Positions 47,277 through 63,757 of a DNA stretch of 64,000 bases are shown here, piece by piece (position 1 is the stretch's first letter; the number at the start of each line of letters is the position of its first letter). The notes under the pieces are model-generated. The model had not been told where the DNA came from. It made no database searches and saw nothing but the letters and a program-made list of their open reading frames with translations. Both the position numbers and the translations under genes were made by a program. Origin of the DNA: Escherichia phage vB_Eco4M-7; sequence record MN176217. One strand, given 5' to 3'.

Positions 47277-48137
47277 TTAAAACTCTTCTGCGTCGGTCGG
47301 AGTTTCATTGACAGGACCAGCGGCACCGCTTGCTTCTTCCTGCTTGCTGCGGTCGATGTTAACGTTACCGCCAACTACGTCGTTGTGGAATGCCTTGGCG
47401 ACTTCGTACAGGCCTTTGTCCTGCACCAGACCTTCTAGCTCAAACTTCAGAACAGACCAGGTGTTGCCGTCTTTGGACTGGGATGCAGTACCCATGCGAA
47501 CGATGTTCATAAAGGTCGGCGGCGTTTTCAGACCCTGCGGAGTCTGAACTTTCTTCTGCTGCAGAGCGGTCATCAGCATGCGAGACGGCTTGATCATGGA
47601 AGAAGTCAGAGACAGCATTGCGCTACCAAATTCACCAGTTTCTTCGTTCAACAGAATTACGAAGTGGTTGCGTGTATCTGCGTAGTAAGGAGATTTCTTC
47701 TCGTGCACCTTGCCGTTTTCGTCCGGCACGAATACCTTACCGTTGATCTCAACAGCGCGGCCTGCCGCGACTTCTGCATCAACGTGCTCTTTGGTGAATT
47801 CACCTTTAAAGCCTTTATCGTCGGACTCGCGACCGCCCCAAAGAATGAAGGTGCGTTTGAATGCGCAAGGGATGATCTGCACGCCTTTCTTACCGTCATA
47901 CAACTCACCAGTAACGGTGTTGTAAAGCATGCCAGCTTTTGCACCAGGAACGTGTTTTGGATCATCTTCGTCGACCATAGGAGACATCTTCTGCAGGACG
48001 ACGATAAAAGGAATGGCATACGCATCGGCATCGGCACCTTCAAAACCAGCGCCAAAATCGGTCATGTCGACAAAATCAGCCATAGCGGACATCTGGGTGT
48101 TTTTCACTGCAACTTCGGTAGTTTCTTTCTTAGACAT
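47277..48137 (-). CDS. putative ssDNA-binding protein (acidic C-terminal tail ending in Phe)
   Basis: 286 aa; C-terminus ...PVNETPTDAEEF; position in replication module. Confidence 0.4.
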   Translation of the reverse strand: MSKKETTEVAVKNTQMSAMADFVDMTDFGAGFEGADADAYAIPFIVVLQKMSPMVDEDDPKHVPGAKAGMLYNTVTGELYDGKKGVQIIPCAFKRTFILWGGRESDDKGFKGEFTKEHVDAEVAAGRAVEINGKVFVPDENGKVHEKKSPYYADTRNHFVILLNEETGEFGSAMLSLTSSMIKPSRMLMTALQQKKVQTPQGLKTPPTFMNIVRMGTASQSKDGNTWSVLKFELEGLVQDKGLYEVAKAFHNDVVGGNVNIDRSKQEEASGAAGPVNETPTDAEEF

Positions 48138-48196
48138 TTGATATTTTCCTATAGTATCAAGTTTCGTGGCAACCTGATTTCAAGATAAAGGTTAAA

Positions 48197-48754
48197 TTAC
48201 TTTTTGCTTTTAGGCAAGGTTATTTTAGCTTCTTTGTATTCAAAAACGCTAATATCTTCACTAACTGGGTTGCCCGCTTCCAGCTGTTCTTTTACAAATG
48301 ACTTCAGTGTAGCAGAATGAACGCCTTGTTTCAATGTGGCTTCAACACCATCTTCACGCAGCGCGGCAACAATCTCTTGCGCCTGTTCGATTTCTTCGCG
48401 ACCGAACTCAGCCGTGACGCTGGACTTGATCAAGCCGCCGTAACCGTTGTTTACAAGCCAATCGAAAACTTTTAATTCGTTTTCTTTCTTGATTGAAGCG
48501 TTCACCTTGGACTCGACCTTGATTTTGGTCTTGTCCTCAAGCTTGATTTCGGACACACCAAGCTCATCCATAACGCCAGGAAGCAGAACAGTTTTGATTT
48601 CACTGATGCGCTGCTTTTGCATATCAGCTTCATCTTCAAGCTCTGTCAAAGCTTCTTGGCGTTCTGCCAGTTCAGATACTAAGCGCGCAAGGCGCTCTTG
48701 AATGCCCTCAGGAGCAACCTGCGGCAAATCATCTTCCCAATTAATATTGCTCAT
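48197..48754 (-). CDS. hypothetical acidic coiled-coil protein
   Basis: ORF track 185 aa. Confidence 0.5.
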   Translation of the reverse strand: MSNINWEDDLPQVAPEGIQERLARLVSELAERQEALTELEDEADMQKQRISEIKTVLLPGVMDELGVSEIKLEDKTKIKVESKVNASIKKENELKVFDWLVNNGYGGLIKSSVTAEFGREEIEQAQEIVAALREDGVEATLKQGVHSATLKSFVKEQLEAGNPVSEDISVFEYKEAKITLPKSKK

Positions 48755-50612: not shown

Positions 50613-51031
50613 GACAATTCCTCTAAATACTTGATGATGTGATGAATAGTTCCCTTCACGATTATCTCACGTTGAACGTCTGCAGTATTATAACGCTTTA
50701 ATTCAATCGAAGGGTGGACTAAATAAAACATCTTCTCAGAATCAACCTTAAGCAAAACGAATGATGGGTATCTCCAATCATTCCAAGAAGAAAGAAAGCT
50801 GCATTGACCTTTCTCAAATGCATTTCTGAAAGGTGCAGTGGTGGCCCTTGCAGGCCACGATTCAAAGAACTTCATTTCAAGCCAAAAGCCGCGCCCTTTC
50901 CGGTTGGTGCCGATTACGTCCGGCACGCCGTCACCCGTCATCGACTCGATTCGTTGAAGCTTCAATACTGATTCTGAGTGCTTCTTCAGGGGCACGAAAA
51001 TGTATTTTTGTTCACGGTTATTTGTTGCCAT
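50609..51031 (-). CDS. VRR-NUC domain nuclease
   Basis: ATG 51031 with AGGTG RBS; GDGVPDVIG...WLEMKF PD-ExK motif. Confidence 0.6.
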   Translation of the reverse strand: MATNNREQKYIFVPLKKHSESVLKLQRIESMTGDGVPDVIGTNRKGRGFWLEMKFFESWPARATTAPFRNAFEKGQCSFLSSWNDWRYPSFVLLKVDSEKMFYLVHPSIELKRYNTADVQREIIVKGTIHHIIKYLEELS

Positions 51032-53915
51032 CTGGATACACCTGTTTGATAACGTCGACGATGAACATGTCAATTCCTTCAAGCTTGCGACCTTTCATCA
51101 GGAAGAATGCGCCGTTCCCGACGTTTTCAGCAATGTATTTCCCGTACTTCTGGAACTTCTCTGGACGAATCCTGAAGCGCATTGGCGAGTCTGTCGAGTC
51201 GTCTTTGCACATAAGGTCGATGAACTGAGTCTCAAGCTTGTTCCCGTACTGGTCAAACTCTGCGTAGCGGCCATCAGCTTGAAGACCCTTTTTAAGCTTG
51301 CCGTGCTTTGTATAGATGCCGCGCTCAAGTCGTTTACGGATGCGTGTTGCTTCGTTCTCGTCCGCAAGCACTTTCTTTGTCAACTTGCCGATTACTATTG
51401 CACGCTCGTCATCGCCGACTTCCTTCATCTGGCGTATTGAAGCGCCGGACGTCACGCCAATCAGATAAGGGTCATTATATGCCCATCCGAACTTTGTGTG
51501 CATCTCTGTAAGGTCGCCATATTTTACTTCAGCAGCGGCCAATGCATCCTTCTGTTTTTGCGTTAATGTTCCGGCTTCGCGCGCTTCGATATACTTCATC
51601 GCCTTCACCATGCCGTACCCTTTCGCGTTCATAATGCCGCCGATTAGCTTTCCGTTCGCGATTGTCCAGTTCATTGAAGAGTGATCAGGGTCGATTGGAA
51701 CGTAATCCACGCCTTCCTTCGCAAGTTCACGTAATATCGCAATCGTCTGGTCTTCGTCCTTAGCAGCGCGTAAGCAGGCAGCGGCAAATTCCAACGGGTA
51801 GTGTCGCTTAAGCCACAATGTCCAGTAGGTCACGACCGCGTATGACACGGAGTGCGACTTGTTAAAGCCCCATGACCCGAACGTGGCCATCGCTTGCCAA
51901 AGCTTTCTTGCATCCGCTTCCGGTACGCCGTTATTTATTGCGCCTGCAACGAAGTCTTCGCCAAGCTTGTTAAAGTATTCTTCACCCTTACGGCCTGACA
52001 TTGCCTTACGTACAGCGGATGTTTTCGCCCAGTCAAATGAACCAATCTCTTTGACCACGGCCATGATTTGCTCTTGGTAAAGAAACACTCCGTAAGTCTC
52101 TTTTAAGTACGGCTCAAGCTGCGGCACGTCGTATTCAATCGGCGCACGCCCTGCCGCGCGTTCAATGTATTTCTGGGCCATACCGGACGACAACGGTCCA
52201 GGTCGACCAAGGGCTGTCAGGTTATCGATTTTGTTGAAGTTGTCAACGTGCACAAAGTTTGTCACTGAGCGTACAGCATCGCCTTCGAACTGGAAGATGC
52301 CTGACATCTTGTTTTCGTTAAGGATGTCAAGGACGCTTTGATCATCAAGCTTGATTCCGTAGAGCGTTTCAGCATCAATAACGCCTGTATCAGAAATAAT
52401 GCCGAGAGTACGAAGGCCCAGCGCATCAAGCTTCAAAAGGTTGAGGTATTCGCTGTCAGGCTTATCGATTTGCGCAATCCCTTCTGCAGTTACAGTACAG
52501 TAATCAGAGATTGGGTCATTACAAACAATGATTCCCGCTGCGTGCACCCCTGTGTGGGACGGGTGAATCTCAAGGTCACCCATGCAACGCGCGGCGTCAG
52601 GATATTTCGCCACGAACTCTTGGCCCGTGGTCGTTGTTGCAAAGGTATCCTCCAGGCCGTGACCATAACGGGCGTCACCGGATGAGTATTCAAGCAGTGC
52701 GTTTTTAATGTTGGCCGTTTCGTGGTATCCAATGTTGAACTTCTTACCAACCTGCGCCATTACTGAGTTGGCCTTAAGCGTGTTGATGTTGCCAAGCTTT
52801 GCAACGTTCATTTCGCCGTATTTCTCTTTAAGATAATCAAACACCATATAGCGTTTGGTATCTTCAAAGTCGATGTCGATGTCAGGAAGGTCGGCGCGGC
52901 TTACGTCGATGAATCGGGCAAACAGCAGCTTATACGGGATTGGGTCCACTTCCGTGATGCCGAGGCAATAGCAAACAAGTGAACCAGCCGATGAGCCGCG
53001 TGCAGGACCGACGAGCATTTTTGTTTTTGCGAATCGTACAAGGTCCGCTACCACCAGAAAGTATGAGTCGAAATCTTTCAGCTGAATCTGGTGAATTTCT
53101 TCGTTGAAGCGGTCCTCATATTCCTGAGTCCATTCTTTGATGTGACCTGCTTTTAGACGGTACTCCATCCCCTCGCGAGCAAGCTTTACCATGTCACCAG
53201 CAAGGTGAATAATCGGTGCCTTACGCAATTTCAAGTCAAGTCCGACTATGCCGTTTGCTATGTCAACAGCATTGGCCGTTGCCTGATCAAGTTCATCTTC
53301 AGTCAAGATGCCTTTAAGCTGTTTGCGCAAGTCTTCCACGCCAACGATGCAATGCGGCTTAACCGTATCGCGAACTTCCCAAGCATAAGCGAAGTCAACG
53401 TGCTCAGGAGAAGGCATGTGATTGTATCCGGTTAAAACCAGCGGCCTTCCACCGCTACAATGAGCCAATGCCTGGCGCTTTGCCAAAAGGAACGATGATG
53501 GGTTGACGTCTATATAGTCGTAGTCCTCTGGCCGCAGCAGCTCCACGGCACCGCCACAGAATTTAACGACGCCATCAAGCGCACCGAACTCTGCACGGGT
53601 AAGGCCGCCGCGCTGCGTTGCAAGTGTCGTAGCGTTGTAAAAAGATTTTAAGTCAAGGGCCAATATCCAAGCCTTCGGTTTGAATCCCTTTTTCGGGTCC
53701 GCATCAGGGTCGATGATTGGAATCTCCATTCCAAACATAGGCTTAATATCATTTTTCTGGCATTCCTTTTCCCAGCGAACGTGACCCCATGTGTTGTTAT
53801 CAACTAATGCCGCGACTTCGCAGCCCAACTCTTTGAGCCGTGCTATAATTTCAGGATGCCGTCCATAAACTTCTTTGAACGTGTAACCGCTGCGAACTCT
53901 CAATTGTGGAAACAT
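51018..53915 (-). CDS. DNA polymerase III alpha subunit (DnaE-like)
   Basis: 965 aa; N-terminal PHP-like LRVRSGYTF; continuous ORF. Confidence 0.75.
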   Translation of the reverse strand: MFPQLRVRSGYTFKEVYGRHPEIIARLKELGCEVAALVDNNTWGHVRWEKECQKNDIKPMFGMEIPIIDPDADPKKGFKPKAWILALDLKSFYNATTLATQRGGLTRAEFGALDGVVKFCGGAVELLRPEDYDYIDVNPSSFLLAKRQALAHCSGGRPLVLTGYNHMPSPEHVDFAYAWEVRDTVKPHCIVGVEDLRKQLKGILTEDELDQATANAVDIANGIVGLDLKLRKAPIIHLAGDMVKLAREGMEYRLKAGHIKEWTQEYEDRFNEEIHQIQLKDFDSYFLVVADLVRFAKTKMLVGPARGSSAGSLVCYCLGITEVDPIPYKLLFARFIDVSRADLPDIDIDFEDTKRYMVFDYLKEKYGEMNVAKLGNINTLKANSVMAQVGKKFNIGYHETANIKNALLEYSSGDARYGHGLEDTFATTTTGQEFVAKYPDAARCMGDLEIHPSHTGVHAAGIIVCNDPISDYCTVTAEGIAQIDKPDSEYLNLLKLDALGLRTLGIISDTGVIDAETLYGIKLDDQSVLDILNENKMSGIFQFEGDAVRSVTNFVHVDNFNKIDNLTALGRPGPLSSGMAQKYIERAAGRAPIEYDVPQLEPYLKETYGVFLYQEQIMAVVKEIGSFDWAKTSAVRKAMSGRKGEEYFNKLGEDFVAGAINNGVPEADARKLWQAMATFGSWGFNKSHSVSYAVVTYWTLWLKRHYPLEFAAACLRAAKDEDQTIAILRELAKEGVDYVPIDPDHSSMNWTIANGKLIGGIMNAKGYGMVKAMKYIEAREAGTLTQKQKDALAAAEVKYGDLTEMHTKFGWAYNDPYLIGVTSGASIRQMKEVGDDERAIVIGKLTKKVLADENEATRIRKRLERGIYTKHGKLKKGLQADGRYAEFDQYGNKLETQFIDLMCKDDSTDSPMRFRIRPEKFQKYGKYIAENVGNGAFFLMKGRKLEGIDMFIVDVIKQVYPDGNK

Positions 53916-54457
53916 TATTTACTCCAGATGTCATATACGCCAATTTGTTGGCAGACTTTGTGCAGTAATATTACGTCGTCTAATGCACGGTGTTTCTGTT
54001 CATATTTTCCGAAATATAATTCATACAGCTCTTGAAGCTTAACTCTTCGGCCAAAAATAGGCAAGGTTTGCTCAACTGTACAAATGTTTATTTCTGGAAA
54101 ATTAACATCATCAAGCGTAAGTCCTTCGCGCTGTAGTGCATAATCAAGAATGTTTTTATCGAACGCATGGTTGTGCGCGATAGTGGCATCCGTCTTCTTG
54201 AAGATTTCTTTTAGCTGCGGGACAAAATTGATGAATGGTGGATTGCACTCAAGGTCTTCATTTGTTAATCCGGTAATCTTTGTGATAATTTCTTCAATCA
54301 CGATTTCAGGATTAATTATGAATTCAAACGTTTCAAGAATCTCTTTGCCGTCTGTCAACAGACCTGCAAATTCAATAGGGCGCGGCTGCATCCCAAGCGG
54401 CGCTTTCGGGTGCACGGTCAATCCGGTTGTTTCGAAGTCATAAGGGAGAAATAACAC
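53915..54457 (-). CDS. DnaQ-like 3'-5' exonuclease
   Basis: 180 aa; Exo I motif YDFETTGL. Confidence 0.75.
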   Translation of the reverse strand: MLFLPYDFETTGLTVHPKAPLGMQPRPIEFAGLLTDGKEILETFEFIINPEIVIEEIITKITGLTNEDLECNPPFINFVPQLKEIFKKTDATIAHNHAFDKNILDYALQREGLTLDDVNFPEINICTVEQTLPIFGRRVKLQELYELYFGKYEQKHRALDDVILLHKVCQQIGVYDIWSK

Positions 54458-58111: not shown

Positions 58112-59107
58112 TTATTTATTAGCAATATAAGCAAATTTTTGATAGTTATTTGCTTTGATGAGTTTTTCAACTTCAGCAAGGTCATGGGCGACGTCATCAA
58201 GCAAAATGTTTCGCCAAGTAGCGAATCGACCGACACTAAATACGTTCAAATCCATGGTCAGTTGCAGGAGTAGGGCGTGTCGTAAGTCTTTCGGAATGTC
58301 GACAATCTTGCCATACTTCTGGTCGACCTTTTCAACTTCTTCAAGAGCGATGTCACTCCATGAGAGGCCAAAAGCCGTCAACACTTCGTCAACTTCTGCA
58401 CGCAACTTAATGTCACGGTAACGAGTAATGCCGCCAGCGGCTTCAACTGCGGCTTCACTTACGCTAACCAAAGGAATTGTTTCAATGATCAGCGTGTCAC
58501 CAGTGATTGATGCGCGGTAAGTTCTGACGGAGTAGTCAGGAAAGTAAATGGTTTGATACAGTTCACACTTGCGTTTAATCTTAAAGCGGTAAACACGAAT
58601 GTTTGCCTTATCGAATGAGAAATCAATCTTTTGATCAATCCCAGCAAGCTTCATCATGACTGGCAGCGGCGATGTGTTGATGATTGGCGTCTCGCTATAG
58701 CCGCAAAGCGTGTCGACCGGAGTATTAAAGAATATACGGTCACCCAGTTTATCGACAAGCTGATCATAAAAGTCATCAGGCGCAATATAACGCGTTGCAG
58801 TTTTAAGCTTCATGATTGAACGGCTGCCAAACTGATTGGTGACCTTCATGGAATACATATTGGCAAGGTTGATTGGGCAATGGTCGTGATAGTAGTTACC
58901 GCGAAAATACACAGCCTTGTCAACTGTCACGGCCTTAAAAGGGATTCCGGTAATACGGCTTACTTCTTCGCCGCGAAAGCGTAGCAGGGCCTTGTGCTGT
59001 GGCGCTCGCTCCCCTGCTTCGTACACAATAGAGTTCGGGAAGTGACACGCGGTAATAAGTCCTGCCAAACCGCCGCCGATAATCATTACAGGTTGTTTCA
59101 TGTTCAT
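58112..59107 (-). CDS. FAD/NAD(P)-binding oxidoreductase-like protein
   Basis: 331 aa; N-terminal Rossmann motif VMIIGGGLAGL. Confidence 0.55.
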   Translation of the reverse strand: MNMKQPVMIIGGGLAGLITACHFPNSIVYEAGERAPQHKALLRFRGEEVSRITGIPFKAVTVDKAVYFRGNYYHDHCPINLANMYSMKVTNQFGSRSIMKLKTATRYIAPDDFYDQLVDKLGDRIFFNTPVDTLCGYSETPIINTSPLPVMMKLAGIDQKIDFSFDKANIRVYRFKIKRKCELYQTIYFPDYSVRTYRASITGDTLIIETIPLVSVSEAAVEAAGGITRYRDIKLRAEVDEVLTAFGLSWSDIALEEVEKVDQKYGKIVDIPKDLRHALLLQLTMDLNVFSVGRFATWRNILLDDVAHDLAEVEKLIKANNYQKFAYIANK

Positions 59108-59241: not shown

Positions 59242-60087
59242 TTATTCCGCTTGATCACCGTCTTCAGCATCGTCGTTGGATTCAACATCGACAAACTCGA
59301 TGTGGCCCATCTCTTCCAGCTTGCTCAGGTAGGAGCGAACAGAAGCGCCAAACAGTTGATCTTTAACTTTTTCGCCCAGCTCATCGATAGACTGTGCCAC
59401 ACCAACTTCGCCTTCTTTGATCGCCGCCAGAACGCGTCCACGGGTGGAATGCTCTTGCGGCTGGCTCAGGCCATTGCCAGTGTAGATGAAGTGAGTGGCT
59501 TTTGCACGACGCTGACCGTTTGCCTTTTTAGCAGCCTTACGTTCTGCGATGGCTTTGCGACGTTCTTCAGCTTCTTTCTTACGCTGTTCTTTCTGCTGTT
59601 CTGCAGCTTCTTTCGCCGCAATCTTAGCAGCTTCACGCTCTGCCTTGCGTTTCGCTTTAGCTTCTTCTTTGGCCTTCTCTTTTTCGGCCTTCGCTGCAGC
59701 ACGGGCTTGATCACGCTCTGCTTTCTTGGCCGCAGCCTGCTCAGCTTTCAGGCGCTTGGCTTCTTCTTTAGCCTTTGCCTTTTCGATTTCTTTTGCTGCT
59801 TTAGCGGCTTCACGCTCTGCTTTCTTGGCAGCAGCCTTTTCTGCACGCTCTTTAGCTTTCTTAGCTGCTTCTTCAGCACGCTTCTGAGCCTTCTCATCAG
59901 CAGCCTGCTTGCGTTTCAGCGCAGCTTCTTCACGCTTGGCTTGTTTTTCCTGCTCACGCTTCTGGCGTTTTTCTTCGGCTTCTTTCTTTTTAGCCAGGCG
60001 TTTTTCTTCAGCCACGCGACGACGTTCTGCTGCGGCTGCTTGTTTTTCTTCTTTAGATAATACTTTGATTGCTTCGGCCATATTCAC
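59242..60087 (-). CDS. Lys/Ala/Glu-rich low-complexity protein with globular C-terminal domain
   Basis: 281 aa; ~200 aa of KAEREAAKAAKE-type repeats. Confidence 0.55.
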   Translation of the reverse strand: MNMAEAIKVLSKEEKQAAAAERRRVAEEKRLAKKKEAEEKRQKREQEKQAKREEAALKRKQAADEKAQKRAEEAAKKAKERAEKAAAKKAEREAAKAAKEIEKAKAKEEAKRLKAEQAAAKKAERDQARAAAKAEKEKAKEEAKAKRKAEREAAKIAAKEAAEQQKEQRKKEAEERRKAIAERKAAKKANGQRRAKATHFIYTGNGLSQPQEHSTRGRVLAAIKEGEVGVAQSIDELGEKVKDQLFGASVRSYLSKLEEMGHIEFVDVESNDDAEDGDQAE

Positions 60088-60240: not shown

Positions 60241-61425
60241 TTAACGCGCTTTCAAATCACGGTACACGGTCAGATTCTTCTTAGCGCGGGTGATTGCGGT
60301 GTACATCATCTTGGAGTACGGGACGCCGCGCAAGATTTCTTCCAGCACGCACACGTTATCCCACTCGCTGCCTTGCGATTTGTGCACCGTGATTACATAG
60401 CCATAGTCCATCCCGCCAACAGCGCGTTGCGCTTCTTTGCGCACTTCCTGATCAGTAGAGAAGGAAAGAGGATTGATCTTCACCTTTATATCTTTACCAT
60501 CAGTTAATGAACGCAAGTTGACATACATTATTTCATTCGACTCGTCTTCATCCCTTTCAAAGTCCGGCACTGGTTCATAGCTAATAACAATCCCCTGCTC
60601 GCCATTACAGAATCCTGGCCCGTGCTGGTTGAAGGTGCAAATAACTTTCTCGCCGATTCCTGGCATTGGCGTTATACGTCCGCTCACTTGCCGTAATAAT
60701 GAATTCCATTTATCTTTGGTGCTATTATAGGAGCAAATAATTTGATCATCTTCGCCCATGAATTTCTTCAATGCAGTAACGCGCGGCGATTCTGCCAATA
60801 CTTTGACGTCATCGTATTCACGCGGAGGAAGGCGGTTGCCTTGGCGCACGAAGAAGGAGGCGCGGATTATATTGGACTCTTTCCCTTGCCGCATGATTTC
60901 GGTTAACAGCACGTCAACGGCATCTTCAGTAAAGTAGGCGGCGGCTTTTACCGGAGGGACTTGTCCAATGTCGCCTAATGCCAGGACAGGGATGCGGTGA
61001 TCAAGAAGGCGCTCTGTGTCCCACTCGCCAACCATCGACGCTTCATCGAGTACAACAAGGTGCGGCCTTTCATCCAGCTTTGACTTTCTCGAAAAGATTG
61101 GCTCATTGTCGTCATTTACGCCGCGCACGTTATAGATGAACTGGTGAAGGGTCTTAGCGCCACGACAGCCTTTTTGCTTTAATCGGCTTGCAGCCTTTCC
61201 GGTCGGCGCAATATAGATAGCGCCGTACTCACCGACACAGCGGCGCACAATCTCACGAGCAATAGAGGTTTTACCAGTCCCTGCATAGCCAGCAATGAAA
61301 AACACACGCTTCGTCGTTTTACCGTCCTGCAATCGCTTGTACCATGCAACGGCCTTCTCGATGGCATCGATTTGTTGCGCGTTAAACTGAATAACTGGCT
61401 CATCATTAAATTCTGGAATGTTCAT
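60241..61425 (-). CDS. Dda/RecD-like SF1B DNA helicase
   Basis: 394 aa; Walker A GYAGTGKTS, Walker B VVLDEASMV, VHKSQGSEWDNV. Confidence 0.75.
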   Translation of the reverse strand: MNIPEFNDEPVIQFNAQQIDAIEKAVAWYKRLQDGKTTKRVFFIAGYAGTGKTSIAREIVRRCVGEYGAIYIAPTGKAASRLKQKGCRGAKTLHQFIYNVRGVNDDNEPIFSRKSKLDERPHLVVLDEASMVGEWDTERLLDHRIPVLALGDIGQVPPVKAAAYFTEDAVDVLLTEIMRQGKESNIIRASFFVRQGNRLPPREYDDVKVLAESPRVTALKKFMGEDDQIICSYNSTKDKWNSLLRQVSGRITPMPGIGEKVICTFNQHGPGFCNGEQGIVISYEPVPDFERDEDESNEIMYVNLRSLTDGKDIKVKINPLSFSTDQEVRKEAQRAVGGMDYGYVITVHKSQGSEWDNVCVLEEILRGVPYSKMMYTAITRAKKNLTVYRDLKAR

Positions 61426-61751
61426 TATAACTCCACTACGCTGTCAAGGTCCAGATATACTGGAATAAAATGGCAATCTTCTTTTCGTTCAAACATCTCA
61501 CCATCAACATGGCTGAAGAAAACAGTTGTGTTTGGTATCTTCCATCCTTTCTCGTCGCGCACTAAGTACGCCATGGATTCAACAGGGATGTACAGCGATA
61601 CCGGATTTGCGGCAAAAATAAATTTGATTCTGTCTGGTTGACCCAGGAATCGCATGATTGTTAGGCTTGAATTCAATCTTGTATTAAGGAAGGACTCAAC
61701 GATTCCGACGTGTGTTGCACGTTCGCGTTGCTTCGTCTCTTTTTCGTTCAT
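61425..61751 (-). CDS. hypothetical protein
   Basis: ORF track frame 61425..61760; ATG 61751 with AAAGG RBS. Confidence 0.45.
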   Translation of the reverse strand: MNEKETKQRERATHVGIVESFLNTRLNSSLTIMRFLGQPDRIKFIFAANPVSLYIPVESMAYLVRDEKGWKIPNTTVFFSHVDGEMFERKEDCHFIPVYLDLDSVVEL

Positions 61752-61854
61752 TTCAGGCAACCTTTGTTAGTGCGGAAATATTTTTTGATAGTATAATTGC
61801 AGATATAGTATAAAGCAAAGTAAATCGAAATTGTGAACTAAATGGTAAATATTG

Positions 61855-61882
61855 TTGACTTTGTATCACTCAATATTATACT
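61855..61882 (+). promoter_or_regulatory. sigma70-like promoter TTGACT-N16-TATACT
   Basis: -35 61855-61860, -10 61877-61882, in divergent intergenic region. Confidence 0.5.
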
Positions 61883-61911
61883 GCAGGTATTGATCACCGA
61901 AGGAAAGAAAG

Positions 61912-62994
61912 ATGGCTAGTTTAAGAGAAGAAGCAAAAATAATTGAAGAGTTTTTAACAGAACTCCAAAGAGGCATTCCAGAAGATGAGCGCGTCATGAC
62001 GGTGTTTGCTCCTGAAGCAACGGTACAGACCGACGAGCGCGGCAAGAAGATTAACAGCAGCTTCTGGCCTAAGCCTTGGAAGTTGGGCAAGCCGCTCATG
62101 CAGCACCAAAACGGCTATGCTTGCATCAGTTCAATGCGTAAGTCTCCCAACCCAAAGACGGGTGAGATGCGATACTGGCGTACAGAGTCTGCCTTTGGTC
62201 ACGGCATGGCGATGATGGTTGATGACATCGGTCACGGTAAAGGGTCCAAAGGCGATTTAGATTTGGAATTCTTTTTCGAGCGACTGAAGCCGACTGTCAT
62301 CGTCGAGACTTCACCGAACAACCACCAGCTTTGGTACTTCTTTAAAGAACCGATTGGCCATCTTATTCAGTTCAAAGCGTTCCTTGGGTCTTTCGTTAAC
62401 ATGGTACTCAAGAAGGGCGGCGACAACACGATTAAAGACGTAACGCGCGTGGGTCGTGTTCCTGGGTGCATCAATAACAAGCGTGTGACTCACGACGGCC
62501 CCTATAAATATGTCGATGAGAACGGCGACCCGTTCCGCTGCCGACTTGTCCATGCAGACTACTCCTTGCGCTACACCATCGAAGACATTTGTCAGGCATT
62601 TGGCTTTCACGTCGTCATGCCGCAAAAGCGTGAGATTCAAATTGACGTCGATGAATACAAGTATGATGCTGTTTGGTATAAAATAGCCCAGCAGATTCTA
62701 GCGCGCAACAAGATGGGTGAAGGGTCTGATGGCGACGTCATCGAGAATATGTCAGGCAAGTGTCGCATAATCTGTCCTTGGGGTGAAGAGCACACCAACG
62801 GCGACCCGTATGGCGCTTACTTTCGCGGCCCTATCCCTGGTGCAGAACATGAATTTGTGTTCGGTTGCGCCCACGACTGCCACCGGAAAGGGGAAGGCAA
62901 GAAAGGTTGGACTGCTTTTGTTGAAGCAATCGTCATGCCTTATATTGAGAATCAACTTGACATGATAAATCGTCGTGCAGGTGGCATAAAATAG
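61912..62994 (+). CDS. AEP-family primase-polymerase-like protein with Cys/His-rich C-terminus
   Basis: 360 aa; MMVDDIG (DxD), ETSPNNHQLWYFF (S..H), TRVGRVPGCINNKR (R..PG.N.K); CPWGEEH...FGCAHDCH. Confidence 0.5.
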   Translation: MASLREEAKIIEEFLTELQRGIPEDERVMTVFAPEATVQTDERGKKINSSFWPKPWKLGKPLMQHQNGYACISSMRKSPNPKTGEMRYWRTESAFGHGMAMMVDDIGHGKGSKGDLDLEFFFERLKPTVIVETSPNNHQLWYFFKEPIGHLIQFKAFLGSFVNMVLKKGGDNTIKDVTRVGRVPGCINNKRVTHDGPYKYVDENGDPFRCRLVHADYSLRYTIEDICQAFGFHVVMPQKREIQIDVDEYKYDAVWYKIAQQILARNKMGEGSDGDVIENMSGKCRIICPWGEEHTNGDPYGAYFRGPIPGAEHEFVFGCAHDCHRKGEGKKGWTAFVEAIVMPYIENQLDMINRRAGGIK

Positions 62995-62995
62995 T

Positions 62996-63023
62996 TTGCT
63001 TTTATTTTCATAGCAACTATAAT
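62996..63023 (+). promoter_or_regulatory. sigma70-like promoter TTGCTT-N16-TATAAT
   Basis: -35 62996-63001, -10 63018-63023, upstream of small ORF 63053. Confidence 0.45.
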
Positions 63024-63052
63024 CATTTTATGAACTGAAGCAGAGGTGATTC

Positions 63053-63199
63053 ATGCAAAGCGAAGAATTGAACATCGAGGTTGAATGTCTGTTAAAGTCG
63101 TTAGAACCTAAACCAGCAGAGCTTCCGACCCTTCAAGGAGTCATGGCTCACCATCAAGCGGCTGCGGCCAAACAATACTCTGAATTTGTTAAGGAATAA
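63053..63199 (+). CDS. small hypothetical protein (48 aa)
   Basis: Hand-translated MQSEELNIEVECLLKSLEPKPAELPTLQGVMAHHQAAAAKQYSEFVKE; RBS GAGGTG. Confidence 0.4.
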   Translation: MQSEELNIEVECLLKSLEPKPAELPTLQGVMAHHQAAAAKQYSEFVKE

Positions 63200-63201
63200 A
63201 A

Positions 63202-63493: not shown

Positions 63494-63757
63494 ATGGGCG
63501 CTTTCCGTAACGAGTTCATCTGGAACGTCACCAGCAATCTCTCGACTTGTCCTAACTGTGCGAGCGATGTTATCAAGGTGCGGCAGCATCGCAACGCGGA
63601 GGAAGGTGCCTGGGAAGATGGCGACCTTGTAGAGTGCCAGTGCTGCTCTCATGAAGGTGTTGTGGAACTTCACGCTGGCAAAGGTTGTCCACCAGCAGAA
63701 CGTACAGCACGCGTTGAATGGGATGCAACAGACTCCATTGGTGATCCTCAACAGTAA
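63494..63757 (+). CDS. zinc-ribbon-like hypothetical protein
   Basis: ATG 63494 after AGAGGTG; CPNC...CQCCSH; ORF track frame 63428..63757. Confidence 0.45.
   Translation: MGAFRNEFIWNVTSNLSTCPNCASDVIKVRQHRNAEEGAWEDGDLVECQCCSHEGVVELHAGKGCPPAERTARVEWDATDSIGDPQQ

Follow-up and report, generated by a model that had tools for sequence, protein, structure and literature searches.

The gp86 protein of Escherichia phage vB_Eco4M-7 is very probably a replicative primase that combines an AEP catalytic domain of the RepB' clade with a probable zinc domain and forms the primase half of an enzyme split from its helicase, gp91. Its gene (O157vBn_00070) lies at 61912-62994 on the plus strand of the window, the 64,000-nucleotide stretch of record MN176217 that we analyzed, and in the list of open reading frames it runs from an ATG start through 360 codons to a stop. 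Over 61400-63200 the sequence has 100% identity to vB_Eco4M-7n, an E. coli O157 phage of the genus Wifcevirus (PP596836.1; window position = PP596836.1 position + 7126), and 92-99.8% identity to 27 further records of the genus.

The gene shows the signature of a conserved protein. There are 96 nucleotide differences between gp86 and its FEC19 counterpart, 92 of which fall at third codon positions, with 4 amino-acid changes, and comparisons with Mansfield, FEC19 and CWP003 range over 96-108 differences, 92-104 of them at third positions, and 4-6 amino-acid changes. Because the differences are mostly at third positions and few amino acids change, we conclude that this is a real coding frame under strong purifying selection; gp86 is an ordinary phage replication gene. 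An RBS, AAGGA, can be read at 61900-61904 (plus strand), 7 nt 5' of the ATG. The record of phage Mansfield annotates an RBS at the equivalent place before its primase. The initial annotation had begun the feature at 61761, which is the first base past the longest version of the leftward open reading frame; the leftward gene has its annotated ATG start at 61751, which leaves 61752-61911 as the intergenic region.

The primase reading is correct but not new, and the whole interpretation was already in public annotation. The gene is labeled 'DNA primase' in the RefSeq records of WFC, FEC19 and ECML-117 and in BASEL phages Bas98-101, and the 2019 Mansfield record cites the RepB primase InterPro domain for it. 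A 2024 paper named gp86 (360 aa) of vB_Eco4M-7 'Zinc-independent RepB primase' and lists a viable phage carrying tagged gp86 (PMC11074155, Table 1). Orthologues that are 56-71% identical over the full length were found in 364 phage records, approximately 294 of them from Pseudomonas phages, mostly PB1-like, with Serratia, Burkholderia, Xanthomonas and Pantoea as other hosts; within Wifcevirus the DNA identity is 92-100%. The searchable literature contained no biochemical studies of gp86 or of any PB1-like orthologue. The gp86 finding itself holds little new biology; our analysis adds to it by correcting the motif map, by describing a probable zinc domain that has no Pfam family, and by placing gp91 as a split-off helicase partner.

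A RepB'-type catalytic domain

Residues 40-237 of gp86 (62029-62622, plus strand) matched the Pfam family RepB_primase (PF16793) with an E-value of 9.4e-36 and 123.9 bits against a cut-off of 24.3, and the full length of the protein matched PHROG 4861, 'DNA primase' (E 2.4e-197). The AlphaFold model of gp86, for which 26 homologues were used (pLDDT 86.7), gave Foldseek matches to the AEP domain of cyanophage S-2L PrimPol (6zp9, E 1.7e-8), to RepB' of plasmid RSF1010 (3h20, E 3.4e-8) and to the RepB' catalytic domain (3h25, E 5.3e-7). In Pfam, gp86 matched neither PrimPol nor UL52, and it had no match to Toprim or DnaG either. The initial annotation had called the gene primase-polymerase-like (AEP) and had named the lack of an AEP profile hit as the outcome that would speak against it; the Pfam score, far above its cut-off, the PHROG assignment and the RepB' and PrimPol fold matches bear the AEP reading out.

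We counted residue conservation over 121 sequences of the gp86 family and found D104, D105, S134, Q139, D171, R179, R182, P184, N189 and K190 to be invariant. In a phmmer alignment to RepB' chains 3h20 and 3h25, D77, D78 and R145 of RepB' fall on gp86 D104, D105 and R182, and RepB' D134 falls one residue off D171. These four RepB' residues carry out or support nucleotidyl transfer (PMC8567376), and by analogy the catalytic residues of gp86 are D104, D105, D171 and R182. Motif I is accordingly placed at V103-D104-D105 (62218-62226), motif II at T133-S-P-N-N-H-Q139 (62308-62328), and motif III, with the third catalytic Asp as the equivalent of RepB' D134, at G169-G170-D171 (62416-62424), followed by an Arg/Lys nucleotide-binding block, R179-VG-R182-VPGCINN-K190 (62446-62481), all on the plus strand.

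This map retains one of the three AEP motifs originally read from the DNA and moves the other two. The R..PG.N.K block, RVGRVPGCINNK, is real, with all five of its key residues (R179, R182, P184, N189 and K190) invariant, whereas the D-x-D and S..H motifs had been read on the wrong residues. D115-L-D117, taken as a metal-binding D-x-D, is not conserved, and the metal pair is D104-D105 ('VDD'). H138, taken as the motif II His, is variable (Tyr in 67, His in 29 and Phe in 25 of the 121 sequences), and the invariant Q139 lies beside it; RepB'-like enzymes typically have a Gln instead of the motif II His (PMC5862659).

The C-terminal domain and gp91

Residues 240-360 (62629-62991, plus strand) form a second domain, predicted as a helix, a three-stranded sheet and a long helix (model pLDDT 87.9). 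RepB' has a helix-bundle domain, PriCT-1, that is needed for formation of the first dinucleotide (PMC8567376). This bundle is missing from gp86, and a Cys/His domain stands in its place. The Cys/His cluster noticed at the outset is genuine: C288, H294, C319 and H321 are invariant in the 121 sequences, and position 324 is Cys in 106 and His in 15, giving a candidate zinc site with the pattern C288-x5-H294-x24-C319-x-H321-x2-[C/H]324 (62773-62883, plus strand). C284 and C323 are not conserved in the same set. As a Cys/His swap like that at position 324 is typical of a metal ligand, the conservation pattern makes this a candidate site that probably binds zinc. The conserved Cys-His-Cys-(Cys/His) cluster also renders the 'zinc-independent' label, which is inherited from RepB', doubtful for the gp86 clade.

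Profile and structure searches placed this domain in no established family. A Pfam scan of the C-terminal domain in 21 members returned nothing relevant, no PDB profile match reached an E-value below 0.1, and NCBIfam had no match for gp86 or gp91. Foldseek ranked T4 gp61 first (8dvf_H) at a non-significant E-value of 1.2, and frataxin and Med14, which are unrelated alpha+beta folds, scored the same, so that the modeled likeness to T4 gp61 may serve as a lead only. The C-x5-H...C-x4-C spacing is one that we take to resemble the UL52 finger, likewise as a lead only. Searched against 1.84 billion representative proteins, the profile of the domain recovered only 28 clusters.

Approximately 1.3 kb downstream of the primase and in the same transcription direction, with several small genes between, lies the gene for gp91 (556 aa), at the equivalent of positions 64304-65974, just outside the window. 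Public records label gp91 a second 'DNA primase', which we reject: it is a VapE-like P-loop protein (PF05272, E 1.6e-28) that resembles the solved VapE-like chain 7pds and is without a primase domain or Cys/His cluster.

The relation between the two proteins emerges from longer homologues. In the 946-aa protein P0131, residues 22-368 match gp86 (45% identity, E 6e-95) and residues 452-834 match gp91 (39% identity, E 2e-77), and because both are colinear with this single protein, gp86 and gp91 together can be read as a split version of a fused primase-helicase. In P0131 and three further proteins (P0133, P0139 and P0141; 856-963 aa for the four), a single chain runs from RepB_primase through the Cys/His domain to a VapE-like/DUF5906 helicase. 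The gp86-type C-terminal domain also occurs at the N-terminus of a VapE-like helicase in P0143 and ahead of an AAA_25 (RepA/DnaB-like) ATPase in P0140 and P0145. A CPW...H...C.H..C pattern is common to all of these longer domain carriers, H321 alone being missing, in P0143. By eye, the N-terminal regions of P0140 and P0145 look like PrimPol-type AEPs, unlike the RepB type; they had no Pfam match.

A VapE-like gene also follows the primase in PB1-like phage 14-1, in Pantoea phage Kyle and in metagenomic relatives, and AEPs of mobile elements are known with a primase, then a PriCT or Zn-binding domain, then a VirE-type ATPase (PMC5862659). From the fusions and the synteny we infer that gp86 is physically coupled to gp91; the acidic N-terminus of gp91 (residues 1-60) may be the point of contact. 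The genome also encodes Dda-like and SNF2-like helicases, which leaves gp91 as a candidate for the replicative helicase.

The switch region and the origin question

The primase is the first plus-strand gene after the intergenic region, and several small plus-strand open reading frames follow it. The leftward operon opens with gp85 (61428-61751, minus strand; 108 aa, annotated in PP596836.1), which matched nothing in Pfam, PHROG or NCBIfam and whose position is filled by a gene of 105-140 aa in relatives. Next comes a Dda-like SF1B helicase (60241-61425, minus strand), identified by Pfam AAA_30, AAA_19 and UvrD_C_2 and by PHROG 325, 'Dda-like helicase' (E 1.4e-99). The strand opposite to the primase also encodes a DnaE-like Pol III alpha (51018-53915), an RNase T-like exonuclease (53915-54457), an SNF2-like helicase and a ligase. 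The gene thus does open a plus-strand module opposite a helicase operon, as first described. No DnaG, Toprim or T7-type primase was found in the larger open reading frames scanned or in the annotation of close relatives, including a 98%-identical phage, and within that scope the earlier statement that the phage has no recognizable DnaG or T7-type primase holds.

The intergenic region (61752-61911) comprises 160 bp between two replication operons and is AT-rich, at 31% GC including 10-nt flanks. A consensus scan predicted a rightward sigma-70-like promoter, TTGACT-16-TATACT, at 61855-61882 on the plus strand (10/12), 30 nt before the ATG, and found nothing at its threshold on the minus strand of this region. 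The leftward sigma-70-like candidate, TTGCTT-17-TATACT at 61790-61818 on the minus strand, scores 8/12, below that threshold, and was recognized from relatives. Promoter-like matches across the region were barely above chance (37 versus 27.4 +/- 5.7 in shuffles). We compared the contigs L011 and L010, whose primases are 82% and 73% identical to gp86 and in which most of the intergenic region has diverged. The rightward element reads TTGACT-17-AATAAT in L011 and TTGACT-17-AATACT in L010; the leftward element reads TTGCTT-17-TATAAT in L011, TTGCGT-17-TATACT in L010 and TTGCTT-18-TATACT in Kyle. Since relatives retain the -35 and -10 hexamers at a fixed distance from each other while the spacers diverged, the divergent promoters proposed at first are supported as back-to-back sigma-70-like elements and are presumably used. 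Short repeats in the intergenic region are mostly promoter -10 boxes. A 39-codon GTG open reading frame at 61753-61869 (minus strand), annotated in Bas101, we treat as spurious: it is uncalled in relatives and overlaps both promoters.

Within the genus this region is almost invariant, with 2 differences in 160 positions from Mansfield, FEC19 and CWP003, whereas its flanking genes differ by approximately 8% (binomial P 2e-4). Together with its AT-richness, its place between two replication operons, a local minimum of cumulative GC skew near 62 kb and the membership of the adjoining gp86 catalytic domain in the RepB' family, this conservation could indicate that gp86 is an origin-specific initiator like RepB' of RSF1010, recognizing ssi hairpins and starting the leading strand only, with the intergenic region near 61.8 kb as the origin. 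We consider this improbable. The PriCT-1 helix bundle needed by RepB' for dinucleotide formation is replaced in gp86 by the Cys/His domain, and neither strand of the intergenic region, folded as DNA, beats shuffled sequences (z 0.10 and 0.49), giving no significant hairpin. In more distant relatives conservation is restricted to the promoter hexamers and the gp85 leader, and although in Wifcevirus and the metagenomic relatives closest to it the switch region is followed directly by the primase, the gene does not adjoin the switch region in PB1-like phages and Kyle, with two or three small genes coming first in 14-1 and Kyle. The VapE-type helicase fusions of relatives point instead to a primase that travels with a helicase. 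The GC-skew turn near 62 kb falls where the genes switch strand and, as it tracks that switch, is uninformative on replication. Longer runs of perfect identity to FEC19, up to 598 nt and probably the product of mosaic recombination, occur elsewhere in the genome, and for this reason we do not read the intergenic conservation as an origin signature. These data give no support to an origin at 61.8 kb, though one may still lie there. The replication-initiation role suggested by the initial annotation is better put as replicative priming with gp91 and probably not as origin-specific priming in the manner of RepB', given the replaced PriCT-1 domain and the lack of a hairpin in the intergenic region.

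Very improbable is a role for gp86 mainly in repriming past lesions, translesion synthesis or counter-defense-linked synthesis: the AEP class includes repair and translesion enzymes (PMC4538821), and the best structural match is the AEP domain of a cyanophage 'PrimPol', but in 364 phage records the gene belongs to the core replication module, no other primase-type catalytic domain was found, relatives are fused to replicative-type helicases, and motif II of gp86 bears the Gln of RepB' and not the His of PrimPol.

As a replicative primase partnered with gp91, gp86 would be transcribed from TTGACT-16-TATACT, back to back with the promoter of the operon of gp85, the Dda-like helicase and the polymerase. 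By analogy with RepB', D104, D105 and D171 would hold two metal ions and R182 would position the incoming nucleotide, and the C-terminal domain may hold the template and the initiating nucleotide during synthesis of the first dinucleotide, as the RepB' bundle does. Together gp86 and gp91 would unwind DNA and lay primers for the DnaE-like Pol III alpha, making them a candidate two-protein primosome beside a phage-encoded DnaE-type polymerase. The conserved cluster suggests that the primase needs zinc, and the C-terminal domain would link it to the helicase. These assignments sharpen the annotation of therapeutic-candidate phages, both Wifcevirus and several hundred PB1-like Pseudomonas phages.

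Comparison with known primases

The closest characterized system is RepB' of the IncQ plasmid RSF1010, which has in common with gp86 the Pfam family PF16793, the AEP fold, the three Asp and the Arg, and the motif II Gln, at approximately 15% identity in structural alignment. The two differ beyond the catalytic core. RepB' ends in the PriCT-1 helix bundle whereas gp86 ends in an alpha+beta Cys/His domain; RepB' uses the ssiA and ssiB hairpins, and no hairpin like them was found in the intergenic region beside gp86; and RepB' works with a RepA-type helicase whereas gp86 would pair with a VapE-like one. The primases of PB1-like phages (Pbunavirus, 14-1 ORF72), of Kylevirus and of Serratia, Burkholderia and Xanthomonas myophages (PHROG 4861) are gp86 orthologues with a like two-domain layout, and their neighborhood also has a Dda-like helicase on the opposite strand, a VapE-like helicase downstream and a DnaE-like polymerase.

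Other primase groups share single traits with gp86. Eukaryotic and herpes-type PrimPols have D-x-D, s-x-H and a UL52 finger, whereas gp86 has D-D and an unconserved motif II His. The zinc domains of DnaG, T4 gp61 and Twinkle-type enzymes are, like the C-terminal domain of gp86, small Cys/His-bearing domains attached to a primase, but they gave no sequence-profile match to it, and the catalytic core of gp86 is AEP and not Toprim. It is possible, though we hold it to be rather unlikely, that PB1-like and Wifcevirus primases are hybrids in which a RepB'-clade core carries a zinc domain related to the template-reading ones of bacterial and T4-type primases and acts in trans with a VapE-like helicase. 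Were this so, a short template motif could be read as it is by DnaG-type enzymes, the primers laid for the DnaE-type polymerase could be DNA, as with RepB', and not RNA, and the 'zinc-independent' label would be wrong for several hundred sequenced phages.

In domain order, gp86 plus gp91 matches the AEP-Zn-VirE/VapE fusions of mobile elements in the PrimPol-PV1 supergroup (Kazlauskas et al. 2018, PMC5862659), a survey that lists the RepB' family only with PriCT-1, alone or together with MobA, and has no Zn-binding domain in it. What PrimPol-PV1-type proteins hold in a single fused chain is, in vB_Eco4M-7, distributed over two genes approximately 1.3 kb apart.

Constraint on the region between the primase and gp85

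The intergenic region at window positions 61752-61911, which separates the RepB'-type primase gene gp86 (+) from gp85 (-) and contains two predicted promoters, is near-invariant within Wifcevirus (2/160 differences); in the adjoining primase gene, third codon positions are ~26% different within the genus (92/360). This constraint exceeds the need of the two promoters alone, and the near-invariance could be caused by dense regulatory sites or by a recent recombination tract. Phage Bas101 carries an annotated 39-codon GTG ORF here (Bas101_0055), the equivalent of which (61753-61869, -) spans both predicted promoters. No counterpart is called in relatives, and the ORF is probably an over-call.

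The 5' leader of gp85, which encodes a 108-aa protein, occupies 61752-61790 (-) and contains ...TTTCCGCACTAACAAAGGT(T/C)GCCTGAAATG. The leader is kept at the nucleotide level in Pantoea phage Kyle (L008:4325-4365) and in a related metagenomic contig (L011:3762-3800), the primases of which share just 71-82% identity with that of the window. A role for this leader in controlling translation or transcription is possible.

Primase labels and the early module

Published annotation lists gp86 as a "Zinc-independent RepB primase" (PMC11074155, Table 1), a label that is in conflict with the Cys-His-Cys-(Cys/His) cluster that its C-terminal domain carries invariantly (62773-62883). Downstream of the primase gene, a small protein (63494-63757, +) contains Cys pairs arranged as CxxC...CxCC (CPNC, CQCC) and matches PHROG 4446 weakly; it may be a zinc-ribbon protein of the early module.

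Several records give the name "DNA primase" to gp91 (Bas101_0063; FEC19 gp24), which lies outside the window at PP596836.1 57178-58848 (window-equivalent 64304-65974). The gp91 product is a VapE-like P-loop helicase with the Walker A motif GGQNAGKS and an acidic N-terminal tail, and a primase domain is absent from it. The name looks like a mis-transfer from fused primase-helicases.

The leftward operon and the phage replicase

Between the Dda-like helicase gene and the remainder of the leftward replication operon lies a gene for a 281-aa, Lys/Glu/Ala-rich low-complexity protein (59242-60087, -; PHROG 4765), which the RefSeq entry for FEC19 calls "TolA protein". A 331-aa protein (58112-59107, -; PHROG 4828) is without a Pfam match and starts with GGGLAGL, a dinucleotide-binding-like motif; its positional counterpart in phage Kyle is annotated "oxidoreductase". 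Two further minus-strand genes (47277-48754) tie this E. coli myophage to Pam3 family names: they have hits to two Pfam families of recent definition, Pam3_Gp34 (E 4e-86) and DUF7307/Pam3 gp33-like (E 3e-37).

The phage also has a gene of its own for a DnaE-like Pol III alpha (965 aa, with PHP, NTPase and finger domains) and, as a separate gene directly upstream, one for an RNase T-like 3'-5' exonuclease of 180 aa (together 51018-54457, -). A C-family, bacterial-type replicase is paired with an archaeo-eukaryotic-type primase in the same phage.
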